The translations under genes were made by a program, and so were the position numbers. Shown one piece after another: positions 5,679 to 63,406 of a stretch of 64,000 bases of DNA. The notes beneath the pieces are model-generated. The model was not told the DNA's origin, did no database searches, and was given only the letters and a program-made list of their open reading frames with translations. The stretch is taken from positions 53,149 to 117,148 of the forward strand of contig DATLFB010000120.1 of assembly GCA_035525285.1 (NCBI GenBank). Reading direction: 5' to 3'. Within the stretch, counting starts at the first letter, position 1. Each line of letters begins with the position of its first letter. The DNA is from Thermoanaerobaculia bacterium. GTDB lineage: Bacteria; Acidobacteriota; Thermoanaerobaculia; Gp7-AA8.

Positions 5679-6303
5679 TATGTCCGAACCCTTGCCACGG
5701 CAGGCGCTGCCGGAAGCGCAGACGCTGGCGCAGCTCCCGTTCAGGATCCTCGAGGAAGTGATCCGGCAAATGCGCTCGACGCGCAACGACATCATTCGTT
5801 TCGGCGTCTGGAACCTCCGCAACCTCACCGACGAAGACTTCAACAAGACCGACGACCGCAAGCTCCTCGGCTACTTCCGGCAGGACCTGCTGGAGACGCG
5901 GTTTCTCTCGAAGGGCCGCCGCATCGATCTGATCCAGCTCTGGAAGTGGTACGACGATCAGATGAGCGGCGTCGAGCCGCTGCTCGTCGACGGCGAAGAG
6001 CTCTTTCTCAACATCCAGGACAAGGACCTCGAGAAAGTGCGCAAGCGCATCGCCGAGATCCAGTCGTTCTTCGCCACCCTGCGCGGCGACGACCTCGACG
6101 CCTTCCGCCGCGTGAAGTACAAGCTCCGCCGCACGGTCCTGCGCCTCACCTACGACCTCCATCATCTGTTCAAGCGGCTGGAGAAGTACCGCAAGAATCT
6201 GATGATGGCCAGCGGCGCCCCGCCGCACATCGAGCGCGACCGCGTGCCGCTCGAAGCCGTGGCCGAGATTCCGGATCCGGTCGAAGAACACGACGAAGAA
6301 TAG
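5679..6303 (+). CDS. Hypothetical protein (charged, helical, no recognised domain)
   Basis: ATG at 5679 (MSEPLPRQ...) and TAG at 6301-6303, which is the first 3 nt of a family A repeat. Confidence 0.5.
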
Positions 6304-6357
6304 GAGGGCGGACGTCCCGTCCGCCCCCCCCCGTGGCGGACGAGACGTCCGCCCTCC
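6303..6357. repeat. Family A palindromic repeat between convergent genes; TAG stops of both genes lie in its termini
   Basis: taGGAGGGCGGACGTCCCGTCCGCCcccccccgtGGCGGACGAGACGTCCGCCCTCCta. Confidence 0.85.
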
Positions 6358-10338: not shown

Positions 10339-10806
10339 ATGTGCGGAAGAGTTCCCGCGAAACGGGTGTTGCCTCAGGTTGTGAAAACTGCTGCGTTTCT
10401 CCTGCTGGCCACCACCTGTGCGACGATGTCCGCCGGACCCGTGGACATCCGCACGATCACCACCGGCGCGTACGCGTTCGGCAAGCCCACCGCGACCGCG
10501 GCGCACGCCGCGCAGGACGACGTCACGTATCGCCGCCTCTGGACGAGTCTCGTCGGCGGCGGCAGCGAAGCGCCCGCGATCGATTTCGCGAGCGAGTCGG
10601 TCGTCTTCCTCATCGCCGGACAGAAAAATACCGGCGGCTGGTCCGTCGTGCCGCGCGGCGCGAAGGTCGAAGACGACACGCTCGTCATCGACGCCGAGAT
10701 CAAAGGCCCCGGCCCGGATGACATCGTGACGATGGCGTTCACCTCGCCATATGCCGTCATCGCGGTGAAAGCGAAGGGCTACAAGAACGTCCGCTGGGAT
10801 CGATGA
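10339..10806 (+). CDS. Small secreted protein with a PrcB_C-like domain (putative protease-associated or inhibitor-like)
   Basis: Hydrophobic N-terminus; GQKNTGGWSV...TSPYAVIAVKA resembles the PrcB C-terminal domain signature. Start is only 20 bp from the divergent giant protein. Confidence 0.4.
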   Translation: MCGRVPAKRVLPQVVKTAAFLLLATTCATMSAGPVDIRTITTGAYAFGKPTATAAHAAQDDVTYRRLWTSLVGGGSEAPAIDFASESVVFLIAGQKNTGGWSVVPRGAKVEDDTLVIDAEIKGPGPDDIVTMAFTSPYAVIAVKAKGYKNVRWDR

Positions 10807-11669
10807 GACGGCGCAAGCCGGTCTCGCCCGAGCTCCTGAAGGCACGCCTCGACACGCTCGTCACGACGTTCGACGTCTCGACGATCGAGCCCGACCCGCT
10901 GCAGCTCGTGCTGCGCTTCCGCGATCCGCTCGATCAGGAAGTGGCTGGACTGATCGCCGCCGCATTCGCGTACGGCCGCGCGGACATCATCGTCGCGAAC
11001 ATCGGCGCGGTGCTCGCGAAGATGACGCCGTCGCCGTATCGCTATCTCGCATCGTTCGATCGTCGCGAAGCGAGTCGCCGCTTCGCGAGCTTCGCGCATC
11101 GCTTCCACAAGACTCCCGAGCTCGTCGCGTTGTTCGCCGCGCTCGCGAACGCGATCCGCGAGCACGGCTCGCTCGGCGCGCTGTTCGAAACGTGCTACGA
11201 CGCGAGTGATGACGACATCGGACCTTCGCTCGCACGATTCGTCGAGTCAGTGGCGGGCGGACGTCCCGTCCGCCATCGTGGGGCGGACGGGACGTCCGCC
11301 CTCCTTACTTCCCCCAACGACGGCTCCGCCTGCAAGCGCATGAACCTCTTCCTCCGCTGGATGGTGCGCCGCACGCCGCCCGACGTCGGCCTCTGGACCT
11401 TCGTCGATCCTGCGAAGCTCGTGATGCCGCTCGACACGCACATCCACCGCATCGCGACCTTCCTCGGCCTCAACGACCGCGCGACCGCCGACTGGAAAGC
11501 CGCCCGCGCGATCACCGACCGGCTCGCCCGCTTCGACGCCGCCGATCCCGTTCGCTACGACTTCGCCCTCTGCCGCCTCGGCATCCTCGATCTCTGCAGC
11601 CGCAAGCGGCGCAGGGAGAACTGCGACGTGTGTTTGTTGCGCGATGCGTGCAGGTTTCCGATGACCTGA
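10803..11669 (+). CDS. TIGR02757/DUF2400 family protein
   Basis: ORF-length conserved hypothetical; the TIGR02757/DUF2400 assignment rests on overall resemblance only. It carries an in-frame family A repeat at 11252-11304 (…AGGRPVRHRGADGTSALL…). Confidence 0.55.
   Translation: MRRRKPVSPELLKARLDTLVTTFDVSTIEPDPLQLVLRFRDPLDQEVAGLIAAAFAYGRADIIVANIGAVLAKMTPSPYRYLASFDRREASRRFASFAHRFHKTPELVALFAALANAIREHGSLGALFETCYDASDDDIGPSLARFVESVAGGRPVRHRGADGTSALLTSPNDGSACKRMNLFLRWMVRRTPPDVGLWTFVDPAKLVMPLDTHIHRIATFLGLNDRATADWKAARAITDRLARFDAADPVRYDFALCRLGILDLCSRKRRRENCDVCLLRDACRFPMT
11252..11304. repeat. Family A repeat in-frame inside the DUF2400 CDS
   Basis: GGCGGGCGGACGTCCCGTCCGCC-atcgtgg-GGCGGACGGGACGTCCGCCCTCC. 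Confidence 0.8.
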
Positions 11670-11726
11670 GGAGGGCGGACGTCCTCGTCCGCCCCGCACG
11701 AGAGGCGGACGAGACGTCCGCCCTCC
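11669..11726. repeat. Family A repeat immediately after the DUF2400 stop (terminator-like position)
   Basis: GGAGGGCGGACGTCCTCGTCCGCC…GGCGGACGAGACGTCCGCCCTCC. Confidence 0.8.
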
Positions 11727-19310: not shown

Positions 19311-19367
19311 GAAGGGCGGACGTCCCGTCCGCCAAACGGGGGGGGCGGACGAGACGTCCGCCCTCCT
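19311..19367. repeat. Family A repeat after the M14 carboxypeptidase stop
   Basis: Half-sites around a G-run spacer. Confidence 0.8.
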
Positions 19368-22575: not shown

Positions 22576-22965
22576 TTACTCCAGCATCGCGAGAATCGCG
22601 CGCAGTTCTTTCCGCACGTCGGCGAGTGCCTTCGTCAGGTCTGTTGCCGCGGCCGTCTCCGCGACCGGCCCGCTCAGCTCCGTCTCGAGCTTCTTTTTCG
22701 CGCCCGCGATCGTGAAGCCATCGCGATAGAGGAGCTCCTTGATGCGCAGGATCGTGTCGATCTCCTGGCGCGTGTAGAGCCGCTGGCCGCCTCCGCTTTT
22801 CCCCGGCGCGAGCTGCGGGAACTCGGTTTCCCAGTAGCGCAGCACGTAGGGCTGCACGTCCGCGAGCTTGCAGACTTCGCCGATCTTGTAGAGCTTCTCG
22901 TCCTGTGCCGCCGCGGCCACGCCTCGATTATAGGCGTGATGACAATCACCACCTCGTGTGCGCAC
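22576..22965 (-). CDS. MerR-family transcriptional regulator, divergent from hypF. The true start is probably internal at about 22920
   Basis: [27 protein letters not shown]; short coiled-coil C-terminus. Confidence 0.7.
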
Positions 22966-23005
22966 TGTGGCAGCGGCGCACCGCCGCGCCGCCTACCTTT
23001 GGCGC

Positions 23006-25351
23006 ATGCCTCTCGTTGGCCGGCACATCGAAATTCGCGGCGTCGTACAGGGCGTCGGATTTCGCCCGTGGGTCTATCAGCTCGCCACGCGTGAAGGCGT
23101 CGCAGGACGCGTGCACAACGATTCGCGCGGCGTGGTCATCGACGCGTTCGGGACCGCCGAGGCGATCGAGAACTTCACGCTCGACCTCGGCAAGAGCATG
23201 CCCGTCACCGCGCGCGTACGCGAGATCGACTGGCAGTCGATTCCGTACGAGCCCGTCACCGGCTTCGCGATCGTCGCCAGCGCGCGCGCGGGCGAGCGCA
23301 ACATCTCCATTCCGCCCGATCTCGCCACCTGTCCCGAATGCCTCGACGAGATCTTCGATCCGAACGACCGGCGTTATCTCTATCCCTTCACCAACTGCAC
23401 GCACTGCGGCCCGCGCTACACGATCGTGCGCGACGTTCCCTACGACCGTGGCAACACGACGATGGAATCGTTCGTCATGTGCGCCGGCTGCCGGCGCGAG
23501 TACCACGATCCGCTCGACCGCCGCTTTCACGCCCAGCCGAACGCGTGTCCCGCGTGCGGACCGAAGCTCACCGCGTTGCGGCCGAACGGCCGCGAGATCG
23601 TGACCCACTCGCCGATCCGCTTCGTCGCGCGCGCGCTGAAGGCCCATCTCATCGTCGCCGTGAAAGGTCTCGGCGGATTTCATCTCGCCTGCGACGCGAT
23701 GTCATCGCTCGCGATCAATCGCCTGCGCGAGCGGAAGCGCCGCGAGGCCAGGCCGCTCGCGATCATGGTGCGCGACCTCGCGCAGGCCGAGGAGCTCGCC
23801 GATCTGACGAACGCGGAGCGCGCGCTGCTCGCATCGGTCGAGCGTCCGATCGTGCTCGTGCGCCGCCGCCGTTCCACGCTTCCCGACGAGATCGCGCCCG
23901 GAAGCCCGCTGGTCGGACTCTTTCTGCCGTACACGCCGCTGCATCACATCCTGTTGCGCGAGTGCGGCATCCCGCTGGTGATGACCTCGGGCAACGTCTC
24001 CGACAACCCGATGTGCACGAGCAACGACGACGCGCTCGACTCGCTGTCGGAGATCGCCGATCTCTTCCTGATGCACGACCGAAATATCGAAACGCGCGCC
24101 GATGACTCGGTCACGCGCGTGATCGCCGGCGCGCCGATGATCATGCGCCGCGCACGCGGCTACGTCCCGCGCGGCGTGGAGTTGAAGCGCGCGTTCGCCG
24201 AGCCGGTCCTCGCCGTCGGCGCACATCTGAAGAACGCGATCTGCATCGGCGCAGGTAAGCAAGCCTTCCTCGGCCCGCACGTCGGCGATCTCTTAACGCT
24301 CGAGACGGAGGTGGCTTTCGAACAGAGCATCGAGCAGATGAAGAAGTTCGTGGGCGTCGACCCGAAAATCATCGCGCACGATCTGCATCCGGATTACGCC
24401 AGCACTCACTGGGCGGAGGACAGGCGATCTCGCCTGTCCGGACAGGCAGGATTGCCTGTCCTCCACACCATCGCCATCCAACACCACCACGCGCATGTCG
24501 TGAGCGCGATGGCCGAGCACGGCCTCGACGGCACGGCGATCGGCGTCGCGTACGACGGCACCGGCTACGGCACCGACGGCACCTCGTGGGGCGGCGAGAT
24601 CCTCATCGCGAGCTTCACCGGCTTCGAGCGCTTCGCAACCTTCCGTCCCATCGCGCTCGCCGGCGGCGATCAGGCCATCCGCCAGGTGTGGCGCATTGCG
24701 CTCGCGTTGCTCGACGACGCCTTCGACGGTACTCCGCCGCTGCATGCGCTGCCGCTCTTCCGCATGCTCGAGCGTCCGGCGATCGAATCGATCCGCCGCA
24801 TGATCGCGAACAACGTCAACACGCCCCGCGCCCGCGGCGTCGGCCGCTACTTCGACGCCCTCGGCGCAATTGGACTCGCCATGCCGGTCGCGCGCTTCGA
24901 AGGCGAAATCGCGATGGCATGGAACAACGTCGCCGACCCGCTCGAGCACGGCCGCTACGAAGTCGTCGTGCGCGACGGCGTCACGCCATGGGAGATCGAT
25001 CCGCGCCCGATGATCAAGAGCGCCGTGCTCGAGCTCCTGCGCGGCGTCTCGCTCCCGACCATCTCCGCACGCTTCCACAACACGATCGCCGCGGCGACCG
25101 TCGAAGTCGTGCGCGCGGCAACCGCCACGCACGGCAACCTCCCGATCGTCCTCACCGGCGGCTGCTTCCAGAACGCGCTGCTCGCGGAGTCGGTCCTCAA
25201 ACGTCTTCCGCGTGCGTACATCATTCGAAGCATTCCCCCAGGCGACGGTGGCATCGCGCTAGGCCAAGCCGTGATCGCCGATGCCCTTCACCGGGAAGCC
25301 GGGCAACCGGGAAACCGGGAAGCCGGGCGGGAGGTAACAACATGTGCCTAG
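23006..25351 (+). CDS. hypF: Carbamoyltransferase HypF ([NiFe]-hydrogenase maturation)
   Basis: Acylphosphatase domain (EIRGVVQGVGFRPWVY); two CxxC...CxxC zinc fingers (CPECLDE...CTHCGPRY; CAGCRRE...CPACGP); YrdC and Kae1-like domains. Carries in-frame family B (24414-24468) and family C (25289-25331) repeats. Confidence 0.9.
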   Translation: MPLVGRHIEIRGVVQGVGFRPWVYQLATREGVAGRVHNDSRGVVIDAFGTAEAIENFTLDLGKSMPVTARVREIDWQSIPYEPVTGFAIVASARAGERNISIPPDLATCPECLDEIFDPNDRRYLYPFTNCTHCGPRYTIVRDVPYDRGNTTMESFVMCAGCRREYHDPLDRRFHAQPNACPACGPKLTALRPNGREIVTHSPIRFVARALKAHLIVAVKGLGGFHLACDAMSSLAINRLRERKRREARPLAIMVRDLAQAEELADLTNAERALLASVERPIVLVRRRRSTLPDEIAPGSPLVGLFLPYTPLHHILLRECGIPLVMTSGNVSDNPMCTSNDDALDSLSEIADLFLMHDRNIETRADDSVTRVIAGAPMIMRRARGYVPRGVELKRAFAEPVLAVGAHLKNAICIGAGKQAFLGPHVGDLLTLETEVAFEQSIEQMKKFVGVDPKIIAHDLHPDYASTHWAEDRRSRLSGQAGLPVLHTIAIQHHHAHVVSAMAEHGLDGTAIGVAYDGTGYGTDGTSWGGEILIASFTGFERFATFRPIALAGGDQAIRQVWRIALALLDDAFDGTPPLHALPLFRMLERPAIESIRRMIANNVNTPRARGVGRYFDALGAIGLAMPVARFEGEIAMAWNNVADPLEHGRYEVVVRDGVTPWEIDPRPMIKSAVLELLRGVSLPTISARFHNTIAAATVEVVRAATATHGNLPIVLTGGCFQNALLAESVLKRLPRAYIIRSIPPGDGGIALGQAVIADALHREAGQPGNREAGREVTTCA
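24414..24468. repeat. Family B repeat in-frame in hypF
   Basis: Translated as EDRRSRLSGQAGLPVLH. Confidence 0.85.
25289..25331. repeat. Family C repeat (inverted runs of 9-mer GTTGCCCGG / CCGGGCAAC-like units), in-frame at the hypF 3' end
   Basis: gggaagccgggcaaccgggaaaccgggaagccgggcggg. Confidence 0.7.
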
Positions 25352-25617
25352 GCGTCCCTGGCCGCGTCGTCTCCATCGAAGGCAGCATGGCCACTGTCGA
25401 TTTCTGGGGCATTCGCCGGCAGGTCTGCCTCGACATCTGCGACGAGCTCGTCGCACCCGGCGACTACATCCTCAACCACGTCGGCTTCGCCATCCGCCGC
25501 ATCCCGCCCGAGACGATCGCCGAGACCCTCTCGCTTTATGAAACGCTCATGCTCGAAGCGGAAGACGACGCCATGGCCGCGGACGTGCGCGGCGAGATCG
25601 AGGCAGCGCGTGAGTGA
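25342..25617 (+). CDS. hypC: Hydrogenase maturation chaperone HypC
   Basis: Starts MCLGVPGRVV (conserved N-terminal Cys2); 91 aa. Confidence 0.85.
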   Translation: MCLGVPGRVVSIEGSMATVDFWGIRRQVCLDICDELVAPGDYILNHVGFAIRRIPPETIAETLSLYETLMLEAEDDAMAADVRGEIEAARE

Positions 25618-26728
25618 GCTCAAGTTCCGCGACCCCGCGATGGCGCGGCATCTCGCGGAGACGCTTGTGCGGCTGATCGACGAGATTGGCCGCAAGGTCG
25701 CGGTCATGCACGTCTGCGGCTCGCACGAGCAGGCGATCGCGAAATTCGGTCTGCGCTCGCTCTTCCCCAAAAATCTCGAAGTGATCATGGGACCGGGATG
25801 CCCGGTCTGCGTCACGGACGTCCCCGAGGTCGACGAAGGCGTCGTGCTTGCGCGCGACGGCGTGCGCATCGCCACGTACGGCGACATGCTCAGAGTGCCC
25901 GGCACCGTGCAGTCCCTCGCGGACGCGCAGGCGAGCGGCGCGAAGATCGACATCATCTACTCCCCTTCGCAGGTCGTCGACATCGCGAAGAGCACGGACG
26001 AGGAAGTCGTCTTCTTCGCGACCGGATTCGAGACCACCGCCGTCGCCACGGCCGCGATCATCACCAGCGATCCGCCGAAGAACCTTTCCGTGCTTTCGGC
26101 GCACAAGTACATCCCGCCGGTGATGGAGATCGTGAGCGAGATGCCGGAGTCGCGCGTGGAAGGATTCCTCGCCGCCGGCCACGCCGCGACGATCACGGGA
26201 TGGGCGGTGTTCGAGCCGTTCGTCGAGCGCCATAAAGTGCCCGTCGTCGTCGCCGGCTTCGAGCCGCTCGACATCCTCGCGGGACTCGTCGAGCTGGTCA
26301 CGCTCATCCGCGACAAGGAAGCGAGAGTCGTGAACACCTTCCCGCGCTGCGTCACGCGCGAAGGCAACCTTCCCGCGCAGGAACAGCTCTGGCGCGTGTT
26401 CAAAACGATCGGCGGGCGCTGGCGCGGCATCGCGCACGTGCCGAACGGCAATCTCCGCCTGCGCGATGAATGGGCGCACGTCGACGCGCGCAAGCGCTTC
26501 AGGATCGACGTGACGTCGCTGTGGGATTACGCGCCGCCGCACCTCGCGCATCAGTGCATCTGCGGCGACATCATGGCCGGCATCCGCAACCCGGTCGACT
26601 GCAAGCTGTTCAACCGCGAGTGCACGCCCGAGAACCCCGTCGGCGCCTGCATGGTCTCGAACGAAGGCACATGCAAGATCTGGCATCTGTACGGTGGAGT
26701 CCCTGATCTCTCCGAGGTGGCGGTATGA
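25610..26728 (+). CDS. hypD: Hydrogenase maturation protein HypD. GTG start at 25610 is inferred from overlap with the hypC stop
   Basis: CGSHEQAI, GPGCPVC and FEPLD...CxxxC motifs. Confidence 0.85.
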   Translation: MSELKFRDPAMARHLAETLVRLIDEIGRKVAVMHVCGSHEQAIAKFGLRSLFPKNLEVIMGPGCPVCVTDVPEVDEGVVLARDGVRIATYGDMLRVPGTVQSLADAQASGAKIDIIYSPSQVVDIAKSTDEEVVFFATGFETTAVATAAIITSDPPKNLSVLSAHKYIPPVMEIVSEMPESRVEGFLAAGHAATITGWAVFEPFVERHKVPVVVAGFEPLDILAGLVELVTLIRDKEARVVNTFPRCVTREGNLPAQEQLWRVFKTIGGRWRGIAHVPNGNLRLRDEWAHVDARKRFRIDVTSLWDYAPPHLAHQCICGDIMAGIRNPVDCKLFNRECTPENPVGACMVSNEGTCKIWHLYGGVPDLSEVAV

Positions 26729-27810
26729 GTGCACAAACAACAGTGGAGGACAGGCGATCCCGCCTGTCCGGGCAGGCAGGATTGCCTGCCCTCCACGGCC
26801 GCGTCACCCTCAAACAGGGCGGCGGCGGCCGCGCCATGCGCGCCCTCATCGAGAAACTCTTCGTCCGCGAGTTCGCCGCCATGCCCTTCGATGGCGTCGG
26901 CCTTGCGGCGATGGACGACGGTGCCGCAATCCCGATCGGCAGCGAATGGCTCATCGTCACGACCGACTCGCACGTCATCCACCCGATCTTCTTCCCCGGC
27001 GGCGACATCGGCCGCATCTCGATCAGCGGCACGGTGAACGATCTCGCGATGATGGGCGCGACGCGCCTCCTCGGCATCACCTGCGGTCTGATCCTCGAGG
27101 AAGGCTTTCCGCTCGACCAGCTCGAAAGGGTCCAGCGCTCGCTCGTCGACACCTGCATCGAGGCCGGCACGCTCGTCATCACCGGCGACACGAAAGTCAT
27201 GGGCCGCGGCGAGATCGACGGCATCGTGATCAACACGACCGGCGTCGCGCTCGCGAAGCGCGTGGTGCGCGACAACGGACTGCGCGCCGGCGACCGCATC
27301 GTCGTCACCGGCACGATGGGCGACCACGGCCTCGCGGTCATGTCCGCGCGGCACGGGCTGCAGCTCGAAGGCGATCTCGTCTCCGACGTCGCTCCGATTC
27401 ACTCGCTCATCGCAACGGTCCTCGAGGCGATGCCGGAGGCGATCACCGCGATGAAGGACCCGACGCGCGGCGGCCTGTCCTCCGCGCTGCACGAGATGGC
27501 GCAGAAGAGCAACGTTGGCATCATCCTCGAGGAGCGCAACGTGCCCGTCACCGACGCCGTTCGCGCCGCCGGCGAGATCCTCGGCATCGATCCGCTGCAC
27601 GTGGCGAACGAAGGAAAAGCGGTGATCGGCGTGCGTGCGGAAGATGCGGAGCGCCTCGTCGCCCTGCTGCGCGCGCATCCGCTCGGCCGCGATGCGGCGA
27701 TCGCCGGCACCTGCATCGCCGAGCGGCCGGGCGGAATCATTCTCGACACGGGATTCGGACGGAGGCTGCTGGCGGAGCCGGAAGGCGAGCCGCTGCCGCG
27801 CATATGCTGA
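26725..27810 (+). CDS. hypE: Hydrogenase maturation protein HypE (carbamoyl dehydratase)
   Basis: PurM-like fold; C-terminal ...PRIC terminal cysteine. A family B repeat encodes residues about 6-23. Confidence 0.9.
   Translation: MSAQTTVEDRRSRLSGQAGLPALHGRVTLKQGGGGRAMRALIEKLFVREFAAMPFDGVGLAAMDDGAAIPIGSEWLIVTTDSHVIHPIFFPGGDIGRISISGTVNDLAMMGATRLLGITCGLILEEGFPLDQLERVQRSLVDTCIEAGTLVITGDTKVMGRGEIDGIVINTTGVALAKRVVRDNGLRAGDRIVVTGTMGDHGLAVMSARHGLQLEGDLVSDVAPIHSLIATVLEAMPEAITAMKDPTRGGLSSALHEMAQKSNVGIILEERNVPVTDAVRAAGEILGIDPLHVANEGKAVIGVRAEDAERLVALLRAHPLGRDAAIAGTCIAERPGGIILDTGFGRRLLAEPEGEPLPRIC
26743..26796. repeat. Family B repeat in-frame at the hypE N-terminus
   Basis: Translated as VEDRRSRLSGQAGLPALH. 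Confidence 0.85.
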
Positions 27811-28490
27811 ACATCGGCGTCCTCTGCTCGCGCCGCGCGCCCGGCCTCGATGTGCTGCTCGCGCATGGGAGGGCGGACGTCTCGTCCGCCGCCGTGGGGC
27901 GGACGGGACGTCCGCCCTCCTTCGAGATCGGCTGCGTCATCGCCACGCATCCCGGCACTCCGTACCTCACCCGTCCCGTCTTCTCGCCGCGCCGCGAGTA
28001 CGACGCCGGGACGCGCGACCTCCTCCGCGCCGCCGGCACGGATCTCGTCCTGCTCCTCGGCTACACGTACATCGTCACCGACACGCTGCTCTACGAATAT
28101 CCGATTCTCAACATCCACGACAGCGATCTGCGCATCACGCGTCCCGACGGCGAGCGCCGCTACACCGGCCTCCACTCCACGCGCGACGCGATCCTCGCGG
28201 GCGAGAAGGAAACGCGCTCGACGCTTCACGTCGTCACGGACAAGCTCGACGGCGGACCGATCATCAGCGTGAGCCGCGCCTATCCGGTCGCGCCATTCGT
28301 TCACGATGCCGCGAAGGCAGGCTACATGGACATCGTGAGGGCGTACGCCTACGCGCAGCGCGAATGGATGATGCGCGACTCGTGGGGCGAGATGCTCGTC
28401 GCGGCGCTGAGCAATGGAGGGCGGACGTCCCGTCCGCCCAACGTAGGCGGACGAGACGTCCGCCCTCCTCATGCGGAGGCGGCCGCATGA
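27804..28490 (+). CDS. hypX: HypX N-terminal domain as a separate ORF (formyl-THF-dependent formyltransferase fold)
   Basis: Fmt/PurN-like ILNIHDSDL...DAILAGEKETRSTLHVVTDKLDGGPII. Two in-frame family A repeats at 27867-27920 and 28416-28470. Ends with a TGA that overlaps the ATG of the crotonase ORF. Confidence 0.6.
   Translation: MLNIGVLCSRRAPGLDVLLAHGRADVSSAAVGRTGRPPSFEIGCVIATHPGTPYLTRPVFSPRREYDAGTRDLLRAAGTDLVLLLGYTYIVTDTLLYEYPILNIHDSDLRITRPDGERRYTGLHSTRDAILAGEKETRSTLHVVTDKLDGGPIISVSRAYPVAPFVHDAAKAGYMDIVRAYAYAQREWMMRDSWGEMLVAALSNGGRTSRPPNVGGRDVRPPHAEAAA
27867..27920. repeat. Family A repeat in-frame in the hypX N-domain
   Basis: Encodes …GRADVSSAAVGRTGRPPS…. Confidence 0.8.
28416..28470. 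repeat. Family A repeat at the hypX N-domain/C-domain junction
   Basis: Encodes …GGRTSRPPNVGGRDVRPP… and ends 17 nt before the ATGA junction. Confidence 0.8.
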
Positions 28491-29266
28491 CGCACATCGT
28501 CACGCACGTCGACGGCGCCGTCGGGGTCATCACCATCGACCGGAAGGAGCGCTTCAACTCGCTCGACGTCGACACCGCGCGCGATCTCCGCAAGGCGGGA
28601 CTCGCGTTCGCGCGCGATGCGAACGTGCGCGCGGTTGTGCTTCGCGGCGCGCACGGCATCTTCTGCAGCGGCGCCGATCTGAAGTACATTTGGGCCGCGG
28701 AAGCGAGTTACGGCGACACCTTCCAGCAGATCCTCGAATACATTCACTCCACGATCTCCGAGATCCGCCGCGCGCCGAAGCCCTTCATCGCGGCAGTCGA
28801 CGGCGTCGCCGCCGCGGGCGGGTTCGGTCTGGCGATGTCGTGCGATCTCGTCGTCGCGTCCGAGCGCGCGTGGTTTGAGTGGGCGTATGCGAAGACGGGC
28901 CTCACCGGCGCGGAGAGCTCGACGTTCATGCTCCCGCGCCTGATCGGCCTCCGCCGCGCGATGGAACTGCTCTTTCTGAATCCGCGGCTCGATGCGCATC
29001 GCGCGCTCGACTACGGACTGATCACCGCGGTCTCGCCCATCGAGACCTTCGACGACGACGTGATGGCGATGGCGCGGAAACTGTCCGAGGGGCCGACGGA
29101 GGCGCTGGGCATCGCCAAGGATCTGATCAATCAGGCCTCCGGCATGGACCGGCTCGACTACCACCTCGATCGCGAGCTCGACCAGCTCGCGCGCATCGCG
29201 AACGGGAAAAACGTTGCGGAGGGGCTGAGCGCATTCTTCGAGAAGCGCGCGCCGCAGTTCACATGA
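28487..29266 (+). CDS. hypX: HypX C-terminal domain as a separate ORF (enoyl-CoA hydratase/crotonase fold)
   Basis: Crotonase signature GVITIDRKERFNSLD...CSGADL...AAVDGVAAAGGFGLAMSCD. Start overlaps the upstream stop (ATGA). Confidence 0.6.
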   Translation: MTHIVTHVDGAVGVITIDRKERFNSLDVDTARDLRKAGLAFARDANVRAVVLRGAHGIFCSGADLKYIWAAEASYGDTFQQILEYIHSTISEIRRAPKPFIAAVDGVAAAGGFGLAMSCDLVVASERAWFEWAYAKTGLTGAESSTFMLPRLIGLRRAMELLFLNPRLDAHRALDYGLITAVSPIETFDDDVMAMARKLSEGPTEALGIAKDLINQASGMDRLDYHLDRELDQLARIANGKNVAEGLSAFFEKRAPQFT

Positions 29267-29934
29267 CACTCCTCGCATTGATGATCACCGCCGCGACCGT
29301 CGGCGCGCTGCACTCCCTCGCGCCCGACCACTGGCTTCCGTTCGCCGCGCTCGCCCGCGCCCGCAACTGGACGCCGCTGCGCACCTCGCGTCTCGCCTTT
29401 CTCTGCGCCCTCGGACACGTGACCGTTTCCGCGCTCTTCGGCGTGCTCGCGGTGCTCATCGGACGCGAGGCCGTCGAGGCCTTCGGAACGACGCTGCAAT
29501 CGGGTGCGCCGCTTTTGCTCATCGGCTTCGGCTTCGTCTATCTCGTCCTCGCGCTGTGGCGGATCTCCCGCGGAAAGCTCCTGCATCACGTCGATCATCT
29601 CGAAGGCGTCGCGCACGACCACGGACACGGCGCTCATCATCACAGTCACGGGAAGCCGCTGACGGAGATGGGACTCTTCGTGCTGTTCTGTCTCGACCCG
29701 TGCGTCGCGCTCATTCCGATGATCGTCGCGGCATCGACCCTCGGCTGGAACGCCGTCGGCGCGGTCGTGGTGGTGTACGAGATCGCGACGATCAGTGCGA
29801 TCGTCGTGCTCGTGCAGCTCGCGCACGCGGGCGTTCGGAAGATCCGGATGCCGTGGATCGACCGCTACGGCGACGCGGCGGCGGGCGCGTTGATCATTCT
29901 GCTCGGTGCGCTCGTCACAGTCGTGGGTATCTGA
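29263..29934 (+). CDS. Nickel/cobalt permease-like membrane protein (NicO / HupE-UreJ type)
   Basis: HSLAPDHW (H-x4-DH) motif in TM1; His-rich loop HHVDHLEGVAHDHGHGAHHHSHG; 6 TM segments; coupled to the hyp genes. Confidence 0.6.
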   Translation: MTLLALMITAATVGALHSLAPDHWLPFAALARARNWTPLRTSRLAFLCALGHVTVSALFGVLAVLIGREAVEAFGTTLQSGAPLLLIGFGFVYLVLALWRISRGKLLHHVDHLEGVAHDHGHGAHHHSHGKPLTEMGLFVLFCLDPCVALIPMIVAASTLGWNAVGAVVVVYEIATISAIVVLVQLAHAGVRKIRMPWIDRYGDAAAGALIILLGALVTVVGI

Positions 29935-40858: not shown

Positions 40859-40912
40859 AGGAGGGCGGACGTCTCGTCCGCCAATTGAAGGCGGACGGGA
40901 CGTCCGCCCTCC
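40859..40912. repeat. Family A repeat between the sensor-kinase start and mazG
   Basis: GGAGGGCGGACGTCTCGTCCGCC…GGCGGACGGGACGTCCGCCCTCC. Confidence 0.8.
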
Positions 40913-41992: not shown

Positions 41993-42672
41993 GAGGAGGG
42001 CGGACGTCCCGTCCGCCCGGGCGGACAGGATGTCCGCCCTCCTCCGAGCTCGGACACAAATCCTCGACCACGCATTCCGCACACAACGGCTTACGCGCAA
42101 TACAAGTCTGCCGCCCATGAAAAATCAGCCGGTGCGCCAAGATGGTCCACTCCTCGCGCGGCAGAAGCGCCATCAGATCCGCTTCGATCTTCACCGGATC
42201 CGCTTCCTTCGAGAGCCCCAACCGCCCCGACACCCGCGCGACATGCGTATCGACGACGACGCCGGCGCTGATCCCGAACGCATTGCCGAGAACGACGTTC
42301 GCGGTCTTGCGTCCGACGCCCGGCAGCGCCGTCAGCTCGTCCATCGTGCGCGGCACTTCGCCGCCGTGCCGCTCGACGATCCGCCTGCGCGCACGCGATC
42401 ACCGCCTTCGCCTTGTTGCGGAAGAATCCCGTCTGCCGCACGTCCTTCTCCATCTCCACCTGGCTGGCGTTCGCGAACGCGCGCGGATCGGGATACTTTC
42501 GAAAGAGCGACTTCGTCACGATGTTCACGCGCGCGTCGGTCGACTGCGCGGAGAGAATCGTCGCGATCAGCAGCTCGAACGCGTTCGTGTAGTCGAGCGC
42601 GCACTTCGCGTCGGGATGTCGCTTCGCGAGTCGCTCGTTCACCTCGCGGGCGCGGGCTTTCAGATCGGCCAT
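41859..42672 (-). pseudogene. nth: Endonuclease III (nth) with one internal frameshift near 42385 and a 3' extension through a family A repeat
   Basis: N-part (frame of ORF 42091-42858): ...LLIATILSAQSTDARVN...GFFRNKAKAVIACAQ. C-part (frame of ORF 41859-42356): MDELTALPGVGRKTANVV...CIARKPLCAECVVEDLC. Direct re-translation shows a single-nucleotide shift at GCG-GAT-CGT. Confidence 0.7.
41994..42043. repeat. Family A repeat (variant right half GGCGGACAGGATGTCCGCC) at the yidD stop / nth 3' end
   Basis: TAA of yidD lies immediately 5' of the repeat; the nth ORF reads through it. Confidence 0.8.
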
Positions 42673-53606: not shown

Positions 53607-54528
53607 TTAAGGCCCCTCACCCTGGCCCTCTCCCCGCTCGGCGGGGAGAGGGGACTGTTTGAGCCACGGCAGTTCCCAGCGGCCTTCCTCTTCGTCGAGT
53701 TTCGGCAGTGGCACGGGCTTGCCGAGGCGTTTGAGCTGCGTGAGCTCCCACAGCTTCGCGTACTTCCAGAACGTGTAGTAGACGTGCATGCCGACGGAGA
53801 TGACGCCGCGCGCGCCGTCGAGGAAGCCGAGGTTGAAGACGTAGTCGCGCACGAACCTGCCTAGCGGATGGCCGAGGATGCCGAGAAGGCTGGTGGTTTT
53901 TCCGTCGATGTACATCTGCGCGGCGGCCCAGTTCGCGTAGCGCGTCATCTTCGCGATCATGTGGTCGAACGAGCGGACGTAGTAGTGATCCATCTTGTGG
54001 CGCAGCGCGCCGGTCTCGCCGTCGACGATCAGATCGGCGTGCACGCGCTTGTTCGGATAGCGCGCATGGCCGCGATGAAAGAGCCGCGTCACGCGATCGC
54101 GCTGCAGGCCGCTGAAGCGCACCTGCTGCCCGAGCATGAAGTTGCGGCGGCCGACGGAATACGCCCAGAAAGGAGGGCGGACCTCCGGTCCGCCGCTTGG
54201 GGGGCGGACGGGACGTCCGCCCTCCAGCGTGCGCAGGATCTCGTCGCGGAGCTTCTGGGTCACGCGCTCGTCGGCGTCGATGACGAAGATCCAGTCGTGC
54301 GCGGCGAGATCGATCGCGTAGTTCTTCTGTGAGGCCGCGCCGAGGTACTCGCGCTGCTCGATGCGCGCGCGGGGAAACTTCGCGCGGACCAGGTCGACCG
54401 TGCCGTCGGTGGAGAGCGAATCGACGAGGTAGATCTCATCCGCCCACTCGACGGAGCGGATGCAGTCCTCGATGTAATCGTGCTCGTTGAGGGTGTGAAT
54501 GATGACGGTGACGGGCGGACGGGGCATT
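53607..54528 (-). CDS. Glycosyltransferase family 2 (LPS-core beta-glucosyltransferase-like)
   Basis: VTVIIHTLNEHDYIEDCIRSV...IYLVDSLSTDGT...WIFVIDADE (DxD). In-frame family A repeat at 54171-54226. The 3' end runs into a family E repeat, and upstream ORF sequence beyond 54528 overlaps the + strand gene. Confidence 0.7.
53612..53655. repeat. Family E repeat (CCCCTCACCCTGGCCCTCTCCCCGC-N5-GCGGGGAGAGGGGAC)
   Basis: Between convergent nfeD and GT2; read through by the GT2 ORF. Confidence 0.75.
54171..54226. repeat. Family A repeat (variant left half GGCGGACCTCCGGTCCGCC) in-frame in the GT2 CDS
   Basis: Encodes …EGGRPVRPPSGGPEVRPP…. Confidence 0.8.
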
Positions 54529-62534: not shown

Positions 62535-63406
62535 AACGACCACCACTCTTCATCGCCGCCGTCGCCGTCATCGCACATCTCGTCTGCATCGACGAGTACG
62601 GCATCCGCGACGACACGCGGCGTTGATCCTGCTCACCGCCGCGCTCGCGCGGCGTTTCGGCGGCGGCGCGTTCGCGCAATCGCTCGCTGCGCTATGCGCG
62701 GCGATTGCGCCGTTCTACCTCAGCGTGACGCATTTTTTTTCGATGAACGCGTTCGAGCCGCTGCTGTGGATGGGCTGCGTCTGGATCGCGATGACGATCT
62801 TCGAAGGCGCTCCAAAGGAGGGCGGACGTCCCGTCCGCCTCAGTGGCGGACCGGAGGTCCGCCCTCCATACAAAGCATCCGAGAAGCGCTGGCTGTGGTT
62901 CGGCGCGCTGGCGGGCCTGTCGCTGCAGAACAAGCAGACGACTCTCTTCTTCGGCGCCGCGTTCGCGAGCCACGGAAACGCATCGCCTCGGCAGGCTCCC
63001 GCAGCACTACGCCGACATGCATGGCTGGCCCGAGATGGCCGCGACGGTCGCGCGCGTCTACGACACGCTGACGCCGGAAGAGAAAGCGAAGTGCGCGATC
63101 TTCGGCCAGAACTACGGTCAGGCGGGAGCGATCGACTTTTACGGACCGCGCTACGGACTGCCGAAGGCCATCAGCGCGCACCAGAACTACTTCTTCTGGG
63201 GCCCGCGCGGAGCCACCGGCGAGATCATGATCGTGATGGACGATGATCGCGAGACGCTGGAGCAGCTGTTCGCGCACGTCGAGGTAGTTGCCGTCGTCCG
63301 CCATCCCTACGCGATGCCGTACGAGAACGACAGGCCGGTGCACCTCTGCCGCGGGCTGAAGATGCCGGTGAGCGAGCTGTGGCCGAAGATCAGGATTTGG
63401 GCTTAG
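62531..63406 (+). pseudogene. Degraded glycosyltransferase family 39 (ArnT/PMT_2-like) gene: truncated N-terminus and at least two frame changes
   Basis: C-terminal …FYGPRYGLPKAISAHQNYFFWGP… is characteristic of ArnT-like GT39. Upstream TM region lies in another frame and a short leader ORF holds a DE motif. A family A repeat is embedded at 62816-62866. Confidence 0.45.
62816..62866. repeat. Family A repeat inside the degraded GT39 gene
   Basis: GGAGGGCGGACGTCCCGTCCGCC-tcagt-GGCGGACCGGAGGTCCGCCCTCC. Confidence 0.8.

Follow-up and report, generated by a model that had tools for sequence, protein, structure and literature searches.

A hyp-linked formyltransferase and crotonase gene pair in Thermoanaerobaculia as a candidate two-protein analogue of HypX

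Introduction

To our knowledge, no enzyme other than HypX makes the carbon monoxide (CO) ligand of [NiFe]-hydrogenases. Descriptions of HypX, mostly from Pseudomonadota and Aquifex, are of one protein with two domains (review PMC12134894), which moves its bound coenzyme A (CoA) through one continuous cavity between the fused domains (PMC6802093). A full-text search of a literature collection for a two-gene or split HypX, or for HypX in Acidobacteriota or Gemmatimonadota, found none and returned single-polypeptide HypX only, the 2025 review included. Here we analyze a 64,000-nucleotide (64-kb) stretch of DNA from a Thermoanaerobaculia bacterium (contig DATLFB010000120.1 of assembly GCA_035525285.1; hereafter the window), in which two adjoining genes downstream of hypE, ORF1 and ORF2, encode a formyltransferase-type and a crotonase-type protein, respectively. 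Proteins exactly matching both (100% identity) are deposited at NCBI from a Thermoanaerobaculia metagenome-assembled genome, and the pair has so far been annotated only generically, as a 'formyltransferase family protein' and an 'enoyl-CoA hydratase-related protein' at NCBI and as PurN and PaaG at JGI.

We place at roughly 0.6 the probability that ORF1 and ORF2 are two translationally coupled genes of a hypF-hypC-hypD-hypE-fmt-ech-(Ni permease) operon, in which they would constitute a non-orthologous, two-protein analogue of HypX. Throughout, fmt and ech denote ORF1, ORF2 and their counterparts in related genomes.

Results

fmt and ech are separate, overlapping genes

A preliminary description of this sequence had read the locus as a formyltransferase frame followed, after hypE, by a crotonase frame joined to it through ATGA, and both Pfam and the sequence itself confirmed this arrangement. 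Each of the two also looks like a real gene by its GC content at third codon positions (GC3; 0.86 for ORF1 and 0.88 for ORF2). The pair and its junction lie as follows:

27804..28490, + strand: ORF1, putative hyp-linked formyltransferase of the PurN type, 228 aa with the two inserts that repeats encode (Pfam Formyl_trans_N, E 1.2e-14)
28487..29266, + strand: ORF2, hyp-linked crotonase with HypX-like Tyr134/Glu143, 259 aa (Pfam ECH_1, E 5e-49)
28475..28490, + strand: coupling junction, with a GGAGG Shine-Dalgarno (SD) sequence at 28475-28479, a 7-nt spacer and the ATGA stop/start at 28487-28490

At the junction the ATG of ORF2 (28487-28489) and the TGA of ORF1 (28488-28490) interlock as ATGA, a 4-nt overlap that would lead to roughly equimolar coupled synthesis, which suits a complex of the two proteins.

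We then surveyed 64 loci from a species-representative genome collection together with the locus of the nearest relative (L001), 65 in all, drawn from Thermoanaerobaculia, other Acidobacteriota, Gemmatimonadota and one member of the Nitrospiria. The two genes were separate at every one of the 65 loci, with zero fusions; hypE lay directly upstream of fmt at 61 and ech followed fmt on the same strand at 62. A 4-nt ATGA or GTGA overlap was present in 30/30 loci of Thermoanaerobaculia and other Acidobacteriota, three seeming exceptions proving to be alignment artefacts whose junction strings read ATGA, and the spacing between the genes in Gemmatimonadota ranged from -16 to +74 nt with varying frames. 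Protein lengths agreed with this picture: the homologues among the matches listed (119 for each protein, own protein excluded) were all 172-273 aa for ORF1 and 240-315 aa for ORF2, and the ORF2 family was highly conserved, with 67-85% identity among those top 119 matches. The order of the genes was altered in the Nitrospiria locus (L057, 998-2625), which reads hypD-fmt-ech-hypE, and in a locus from a bin labelled 'Halobacteriales' (L065, 4868-6432), where ech is divergent from fmt and still adjoins hypE; the archaeal label of the latter may reflect a binning error or horizontal transfer. Linkage of fmt-ech to the hyp genes thus spans at least three phylum-level lineages and persists through rearrangement.

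Apparent fmt-ech 'fusions' in a 50% representative library (P0251, P0311, P0335, P0254, P0255, P0258 and P0309; 326-483 aa) were rejected as frameshifted chimeras carrying out-of-frame stretches rich in Arg, Ala and Pro. Some of these chimeric calls continue into HypA-like sequence (MHEYSIV...), which suggests for some relatives a hypA gene placed after ech.

Programmed -1 ribosomal frameshifting near the junction might still join the separate frames into one HypX-like polypeptide, given that ORF2 lies in the -1 frame of ORF1 and that this frame is open upstream to 27635. However, no slippery heptamer of the form X_XXY_YYZ was found anywhere in ORF1, so that the search for a frameshift signal suggested in the preliminary description came back empty, and where the ORF2 frame continues upstream its GC3 is 0.58, a non-coding value beside the 0.86-0.88 of the genes. 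ORF2 moreover has its own GGAGG-N7-ATG, and the Gemmatimonadota pairs are spaced in varying frames. We consider frameshifting at this junction vanishingly improbable.

Comparison with canonical HypX

In Cupriavidus necator, hypX (L002:13681-15474, 597 aa) lies directly after hypE on pHG1, in the same slot as ORF1 and ORF2. The HypX proteins among those listed (120) were all 566-639 aa long, with Pfam matches drawn from PF00551, PF02911 and PF00378. NCBIfam contains no HypX-specific model, and C. necator HypX matches only fmt and generic ECH models, below their cutoffs. Measured against HypX, ORF1 and ORF2 lack the single polypeptide of about 570-640 aa with Formyl_trans_N, Formyl_trans_C and ECH_1, and ORF1 lacks sequence relatedness to its N-terminal part; the essential decarbonylase-site Tyr and Glu and the position next to hypE in the hyp cluster are both present. 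A search of 64 related loci for a canonical HypX N-domain found none.

Profile comparisons separated the two families further from HypX. The ORF1 family aligned to the HypX N-domain with hhalign at 78% probability over 89 columns only. Over 151 residues, ORF2 and the HypX C-domain share 32% identity, and the ORF2 family scored 566 in hhalign against PaaG-like crotonases and 127 against the HypX C-domain; the HypX C-domain scored 157 against the same generic crotonases.

These comparisons bear on an ancient fission of hypX, by which the two HypX domains would have parted long ago and diverged, leaving ORF1 as the true orthologue of the N-domain and ORF2 as that of the C-domain. The pair matches HypX in domain order and in its place after hypE, and the catalytic His/Asp and Tyr/Glu align with those of HypX. 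Even so, orthologous fission appears quite unlikely, because ORF1 is unlike the HypX N-domain, which is Fmt-type with a Formyl_trans_C domain (PF02911) whereas ORF1 looks PurN-type without one, and because PaaG-like crotonases resemble the ORF2 family far more closely than the HypX C-domain does. The preliminary description had identified the pair as HypX itself; the ORF2 scores point instead to an analogue and not a fission product. What survives of that identification is likeness in position and chemistry, with the slot after hypE occupied as in C. necator and catalytic residues that are compatible. Alignment to HypX was accordingly divided in its outcome, the His/Asp and Tyr/Glu columns matching and ORF1 showing no pairwise similarity to the N-domain.

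ORF1 keeps the formyl-transfer residues of PurN

ORF1 carries Formyl_trans_N (PF00551) as its only Pfam domain. Asn103, His105 and Asp149 are invariant in the ORF1 family and align to N106, H108 and D144 of PurN, the last two falling also on His74 and Asp109 of HypX. The counterpart of the third HypX residue, the His-orienting Asp80, is ambiguous: the family has an invariant HD(S)D motif, whose Ser107 is about 90% conserved. By our reading of the alignment, the N-terminal loop that binds the phosphate of glycinamide ribonucleotide (GAR) in PurN is replaced in the ORF1 family by an invariant S9-x-R11-A12-P13, and ORF1 scores 51.8 bits against the PurN model TIGR00639, short of its equivalog cutoff of 150.1. 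With the formyl-transfer residues kept, the GAR loop replaced and the score far below the PurN cutoff, ORF1 therefore appears to be a folate-dependent formyltransferase with a different acceptor. We propose that it is a single-domain PurN-type N10-formyl-tetrahydrofolate (N10-formyl-THF) formyltransferase with a remodelled acceptor site.

ORF2 carries the Tyr and Glu of the HypX decarbonylase site

ORF2 belongs to the crotonase fold (PF00378) and probably derives from its PaaG-like branch. Tyr134 and Glu143 are present in 59/59 ORF2-family sequences, in the columns of HypX Tyr439 and Glu449. Mutation of these HypX residues (Y416 and E426 in the Aquifex aeolicus enzyme) gives a HypX-minus phenotype, and they are the proposed bases in formyl-CoA decarbonylation (PMC6802093). 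In a three-way alignment, Ala110, Gly141 and Glu143 were common to the ORF2 family and HypX and occurred in 2%, 7% and 0%, respectively, of 97 neighbouring crotonases. The active-site loop accordingly reads G-A-E in ORF2 and G-S-E in HypX as opposed to P-D-G in PaaG-like relatives, and the preceding Tyr134 is common to all three. When 117 sequences representing the nearest crotonase clusters were compared, Tyr and Glu occurred together in only 9 of them (44-77% identity); these carry the same FE[WY]AY...[AT]E motif and were taken as orthologues.

The generic names that databases give to the two proteins point to another possibility, in which the pair has a different role in hydrogenase maturation or in the operon, or belongs to unrelated acyl-CoA and one-carbon metabolism that merely travels with the operon, for example with a different formyl acceptor for ORF1 or an acyl-CoA isomerase or hydrolase activity for ORF2. 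PurN and PaaG at JGI and the 'family protein' label at NCBI would fit such a role, as would the matches of ORF2 to the oxepin_alt model (192.6, cutoff 300) and the PaaG model (176.7, cutoff 345), both below cutoff, and the HypX-like role of the pair is itself read from sequence. Against it stand the tight hypD/hypE linkage across phyla, which persists through rearrangement, the shortfall of both ORF1 and ORF2 against the PurN and PaaG cutoffs, and the HypX-type Glu that replaces the PaaG-type Asp in every ORF2-family member. We regard a function of this other kind as doubtful, although it retains an appreciable share of the probability.

Separately, ORF2 is without a loop of 13-36 residues (28680-28700, residues ~66-75) that most orthologues have after an LKYI motif, where the orthologue consensus is RAGG..DL.YL.P...; some orthologues are equally short.

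The palindromic repeats in ORF1 are in-frame passengers

A palindromic repeat, termed family A, lies twice within ORF1 and elsewhere in the window:

27868..27920: copy 1, a 53-nt palindrome in ORF1, in frame, encoding GRADVSSAAVGRTGRPPS
28416..28468: copy 2, a 53-nt palindrome in the ORF1 C-terminal tail, in frame, encoding GGRTSRPPNVGGRDVRPP
11252-11304: third in-frame copy, encoding AGGRPVRHRGADGTSALL, within a DUF2400 gene (10803-11669, + strand) that is otherwise an end-to-end match to Pfam DUF2400
68-121, 6303-6357, 11704-11726, 19311-19366, 40860-40912, 41995-42042, 54172-54225 and 62817-62867: intergenic copies with a variable loop

Both ORF1 copies read GGAGGGCGGACGTCYCGTCCGCC-N7-GGCGGACGRGACGTCCGCCCTCC, with 23-nt arms that are 96% complementary, and their predicted RNA hairpins are very stable (-61.6 kcal/mol and z -6.6 for copy 1; -68.7 kcal/mol and z -7.3 for copy 2). 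Across the 64 kb we counted 25 half-site matches, where 0.01 would be expected by chance, which make up 11 elements of 23-56 nt; three of these 11 are in-frame insertions in coding sequence. Several intergenic copies abut stop codons exactly, the copy at 6303-6357 fills the entire gap between two convergent genes, and that at 11704-11726 is a half copy. The family is thus a short imperfect palindrome with many dispersed copies, mostly intergenic and some in frame within genes, and appears to be an element of the type of repetitive extragenic palindromic (REP) sequences that is specific to this genome lineage. Its sequence had no match in Rfam, no copy was found in a scan of 66 related loci, and the repeat-encoded peptides are absent from all 17 homologues aligned with ORF1.

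The preliminary description offered two readings of the gene boundary: that this lineage makes HypX as two subunits, or that insertion of a family A repeat had split an ancestral fused hypX, after which the ATGA overlap brought back coupled translation. A copy does sit beside the junction, with a second inside ORF1, as described, but it ends at 28468 and 18 nt upstream of the ORF2 ATG rather than at 28470 and 17 nt. This proximity is what speaks for a split. On the other side, the repeat was inserted in frame within ORF1: compared with L001, which has 85% nucleotide identity in the ORF1 gene and the same order (hypC-D-E-fmt-ech-membrane protein), the window carries an additional 42 nt at site 1 and 57 nt at site 2, both multiples of three, and at site 2 the flanks align with L001, the 3' flank and junction being identical. 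The junction GCGGAGGCGGCCGCATGACGCACATCGT, comprising the ORF1 C-terminus AEAAA*, the SD and ATGA, is the same in the window and in repeat-free L001. The 4-nt overlap likewise exists without any repeat throughout the Thermoanaerobaculia and Acidobacteriota loci, and no fused homologue was present among the matches listed. Because relatives share the two-gene arrangement without any repeat, the proposed split is refuted, and we leave it next to no probability.

The two-gene state and its coupling overlap are therefore older than the repeat. Separate genes are the ancestral condition in both soil phyla; the operon layout is ancestral in Thermoanaerobaculia, and its hypD-hypE-fmt-ech core also occurs in Gemmatimonadota. 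The repeats in ORF1 are tolerated passengers unconnected with the gene boundary. In an AlphaFold2 model of ORF1 (mean predicted local distance difference test score, pLDDT, 81.8), values fall below 50 only at residues 25-32 and 207-228, which comprise the two inserts and the tail, and the inserts are accordingly predicted to be disordered additions to a surface loop and to the tail. Taken jointly, these claims on gene anatomy and evolution are ones in which we have very high confidence.

Gene neighbourhood in the window

Upstream and downstream of the pair, the window contains the following genes:

22576..22965, - strand: MerR-family regulator (Pfam MerR_1, E 6e-21), transcribed divergently from hypF
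22958..25351, + strand: hypF, carbamoyltransferase (TIGR00143, E 4e-220)
25342..25617, + strand: hypC in its true frame, starting MCLGVPG (PF01455, E 3.4e-24; also matched by tblastn with C. necator HypC)
25610..26728, + strand: hypD, with a probable GTG start at 25610 and a longest ORF from 25538 (TIGR00075, E 3e-121)
26725..27810, + strand: hypE (TIGR02124, E 1.4e-112)
29263..29934, + strand: ORF3, membrane protein with an HX4DH motif (HSLAPDH) and a His-rich loop, HHVDHLEGVAHDHGHGAHHHSHG (weak NicO match, E 1.7e-4, below the Pfam cutoff)

The genes are tightly packed: the start of hypC overlaps the 3' end of hypF, hypC and hypD overlap at GTGAGTGA in the same arrangement as in L001, hypE and ORF1 overlap by 7 nt, and ORF2 and ORF3 are joined by a further ATGA. 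ORF3 is kept downstream of the crotonase gene in most Thermoanaerobaculia and Acidobacteriota loci and is probably a Ni/Co permease of the same operon, which would supply nickel. The MerR-family regulator keeps its position in two relatives (L067 and L068) and is a candidate regulator of the hyp-fmt-ech operon.

An ORF listed at 25344-25541 (GC3 0.44) lies in the wrong frame, hypC itself occupying 25342-25617; the off-frame translation had 'matched' other loci because the underlying DNA is conserved.

Hydrogenase structural genes, hypA and hypB, which the preliminary description had suggested looking for, were not found within the 64-kb window. Upstream in Gemmatimonadota relatives lies a large subunit that resembles group 1 and shares about 47% identity with HoxG of C. 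necator. The window also encodes a fatty-acid desaturase homologue (PF00487; 45315-46382, + strand), a class that we take to be O2-dependent and that is the only hint of aerobic life in the window, a weak one.

Discussion

A HypX-like function for the ORF1/ORF2 pair is slightly favoured in our assessment, because the genes are linked to hypD and hypE across phyla, ORF1 keeps the Asn, His and Asp of formyl transfer and the Tyr and Glu of ORF2 are invariant. Under such a function, ORF1 would move the formyl group from N10-formyl-THF to the thiol of CoA, ORF2 would decarbonylate the resulting formyl-CoA to CO and CoA by means of Tyr134 and Glu143, and the CO would pass to the iron of HypCD to give the Fe(CN)2CO unit. 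ORF1 and ORF2 may act as a complex.

Several observations weigh against reading the pair as an analogue of HypX. CO production and the substrates, CoA as the putative acceptor of ORF1 included, are deduced from sequence and gene position. BLASTP returned no match between ORF1 and HypX, and generic crotonases score at least as high against the HypX C-domain (157) as the ORF2 family does (127). Of the PaaG-like relatives, 68% also have Tyr at position 134, leaving only the Glu distinctive, and the Tyr-to-Glu spacing is 9 residues in ORF2 as opposed to 10 in HypX. The CoA cavity of HypX joins fused domains, whereas ORF1 and ORF2 are known here as separate proteins. Finally, the window is without a hydrogenase to match the oxygen-exposed, high-affinity group 1h/2a enzyme proposed in the preliminary description, and its one sign of contact with O2 is the desaturase homologue.

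Extended beyond this locus, the two-protein analogue would mean that Thermoanaerobaculia and Gemmatimonadota, both abundant in soil, obtain the CO ligand of their [NiFe]-hydrogenases from two convergently evolved proteins that replace HypX, a formyl-THF:CoA formyltransferase derived from PurN and a formyl-CoA decarbonylase derived from PaaG, a proposal for which we judge the chances to be even. If true, a two-protein module of other ancestry in the same operon position would represent an independent solution for CO-ligand synthesis; it would also show whether the CoA shuttle of the fused HypX domains is dispensable and would make it easier to recognize in soil metagenomes the potential to oxidize H2. 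With the repeat-caused split set aside, the remaining interest of the locus lies in the conserved fmt-ech module and in the in-frame repeat insertions, the three REP-like palindromes within genes showing, on a small scale but clearly, that proteins can accommodate loops encoded by repeats.

Comparison with known systems places each part of the locus near, and apart from, a described counterpart. The repeat presumably resembles REP elements and the Rickettsia palindromic elements (RPE), which insert in frame into genes: it is likewise a short palindrome (48-56 nt) with a very stable hairpin and many copies, about one per 6 kb and mostly intergenic, of which three lie in frame in coding sequence and add about 18 residues to surface regions. 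On the other hand, its sequence is unrelated, its host is an acidobacterial lineage and it has no Rfam family.

ORF1 finds its best match in sequence and structure in PurN, the GAR transformylase, of which it retains the Asn-x-His, the Asp and the folate-binding core. Besides the replaced phosphate loop, it departs from PurN in eight residues inserted after HDSDL, in a strongly conserved, family-specific C-terminal helix (YAYAQREWMMRD-WG) and in lying always in hyp rather than purine operons. ORF2 likewise has its best sequence match (4.5e-40) among PaaG-like crotonases (TIGR02280; PDB 4FZW_C), with the A-Y and oxyanion-hole motifs in common; it differs from them in the G-A-E that every family member has in place of the catalytic P-D-G, in its sub-cutoff score and in its hyp instead of paa context.

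The closest described system for the pair as a whole is HypX/HoxX of C. necator, Rhizobium leguminosarum and A. aeolicus (PDB 6J0P), in which a formyl-THF transferase fold is likewise followed by a crotonase fold after hypE. Unlike that enzyme, which is one polypeptide of about 570-640 aa, the module described here consists of two proteins (228 and 259 aa); where the HypX N-domain is Fmt/FDH-like with Formyl_trans_C, ORF1 appears PurN-like without it; and ORF2 looks to be a crotonase of other, PaaG-like ancestry.

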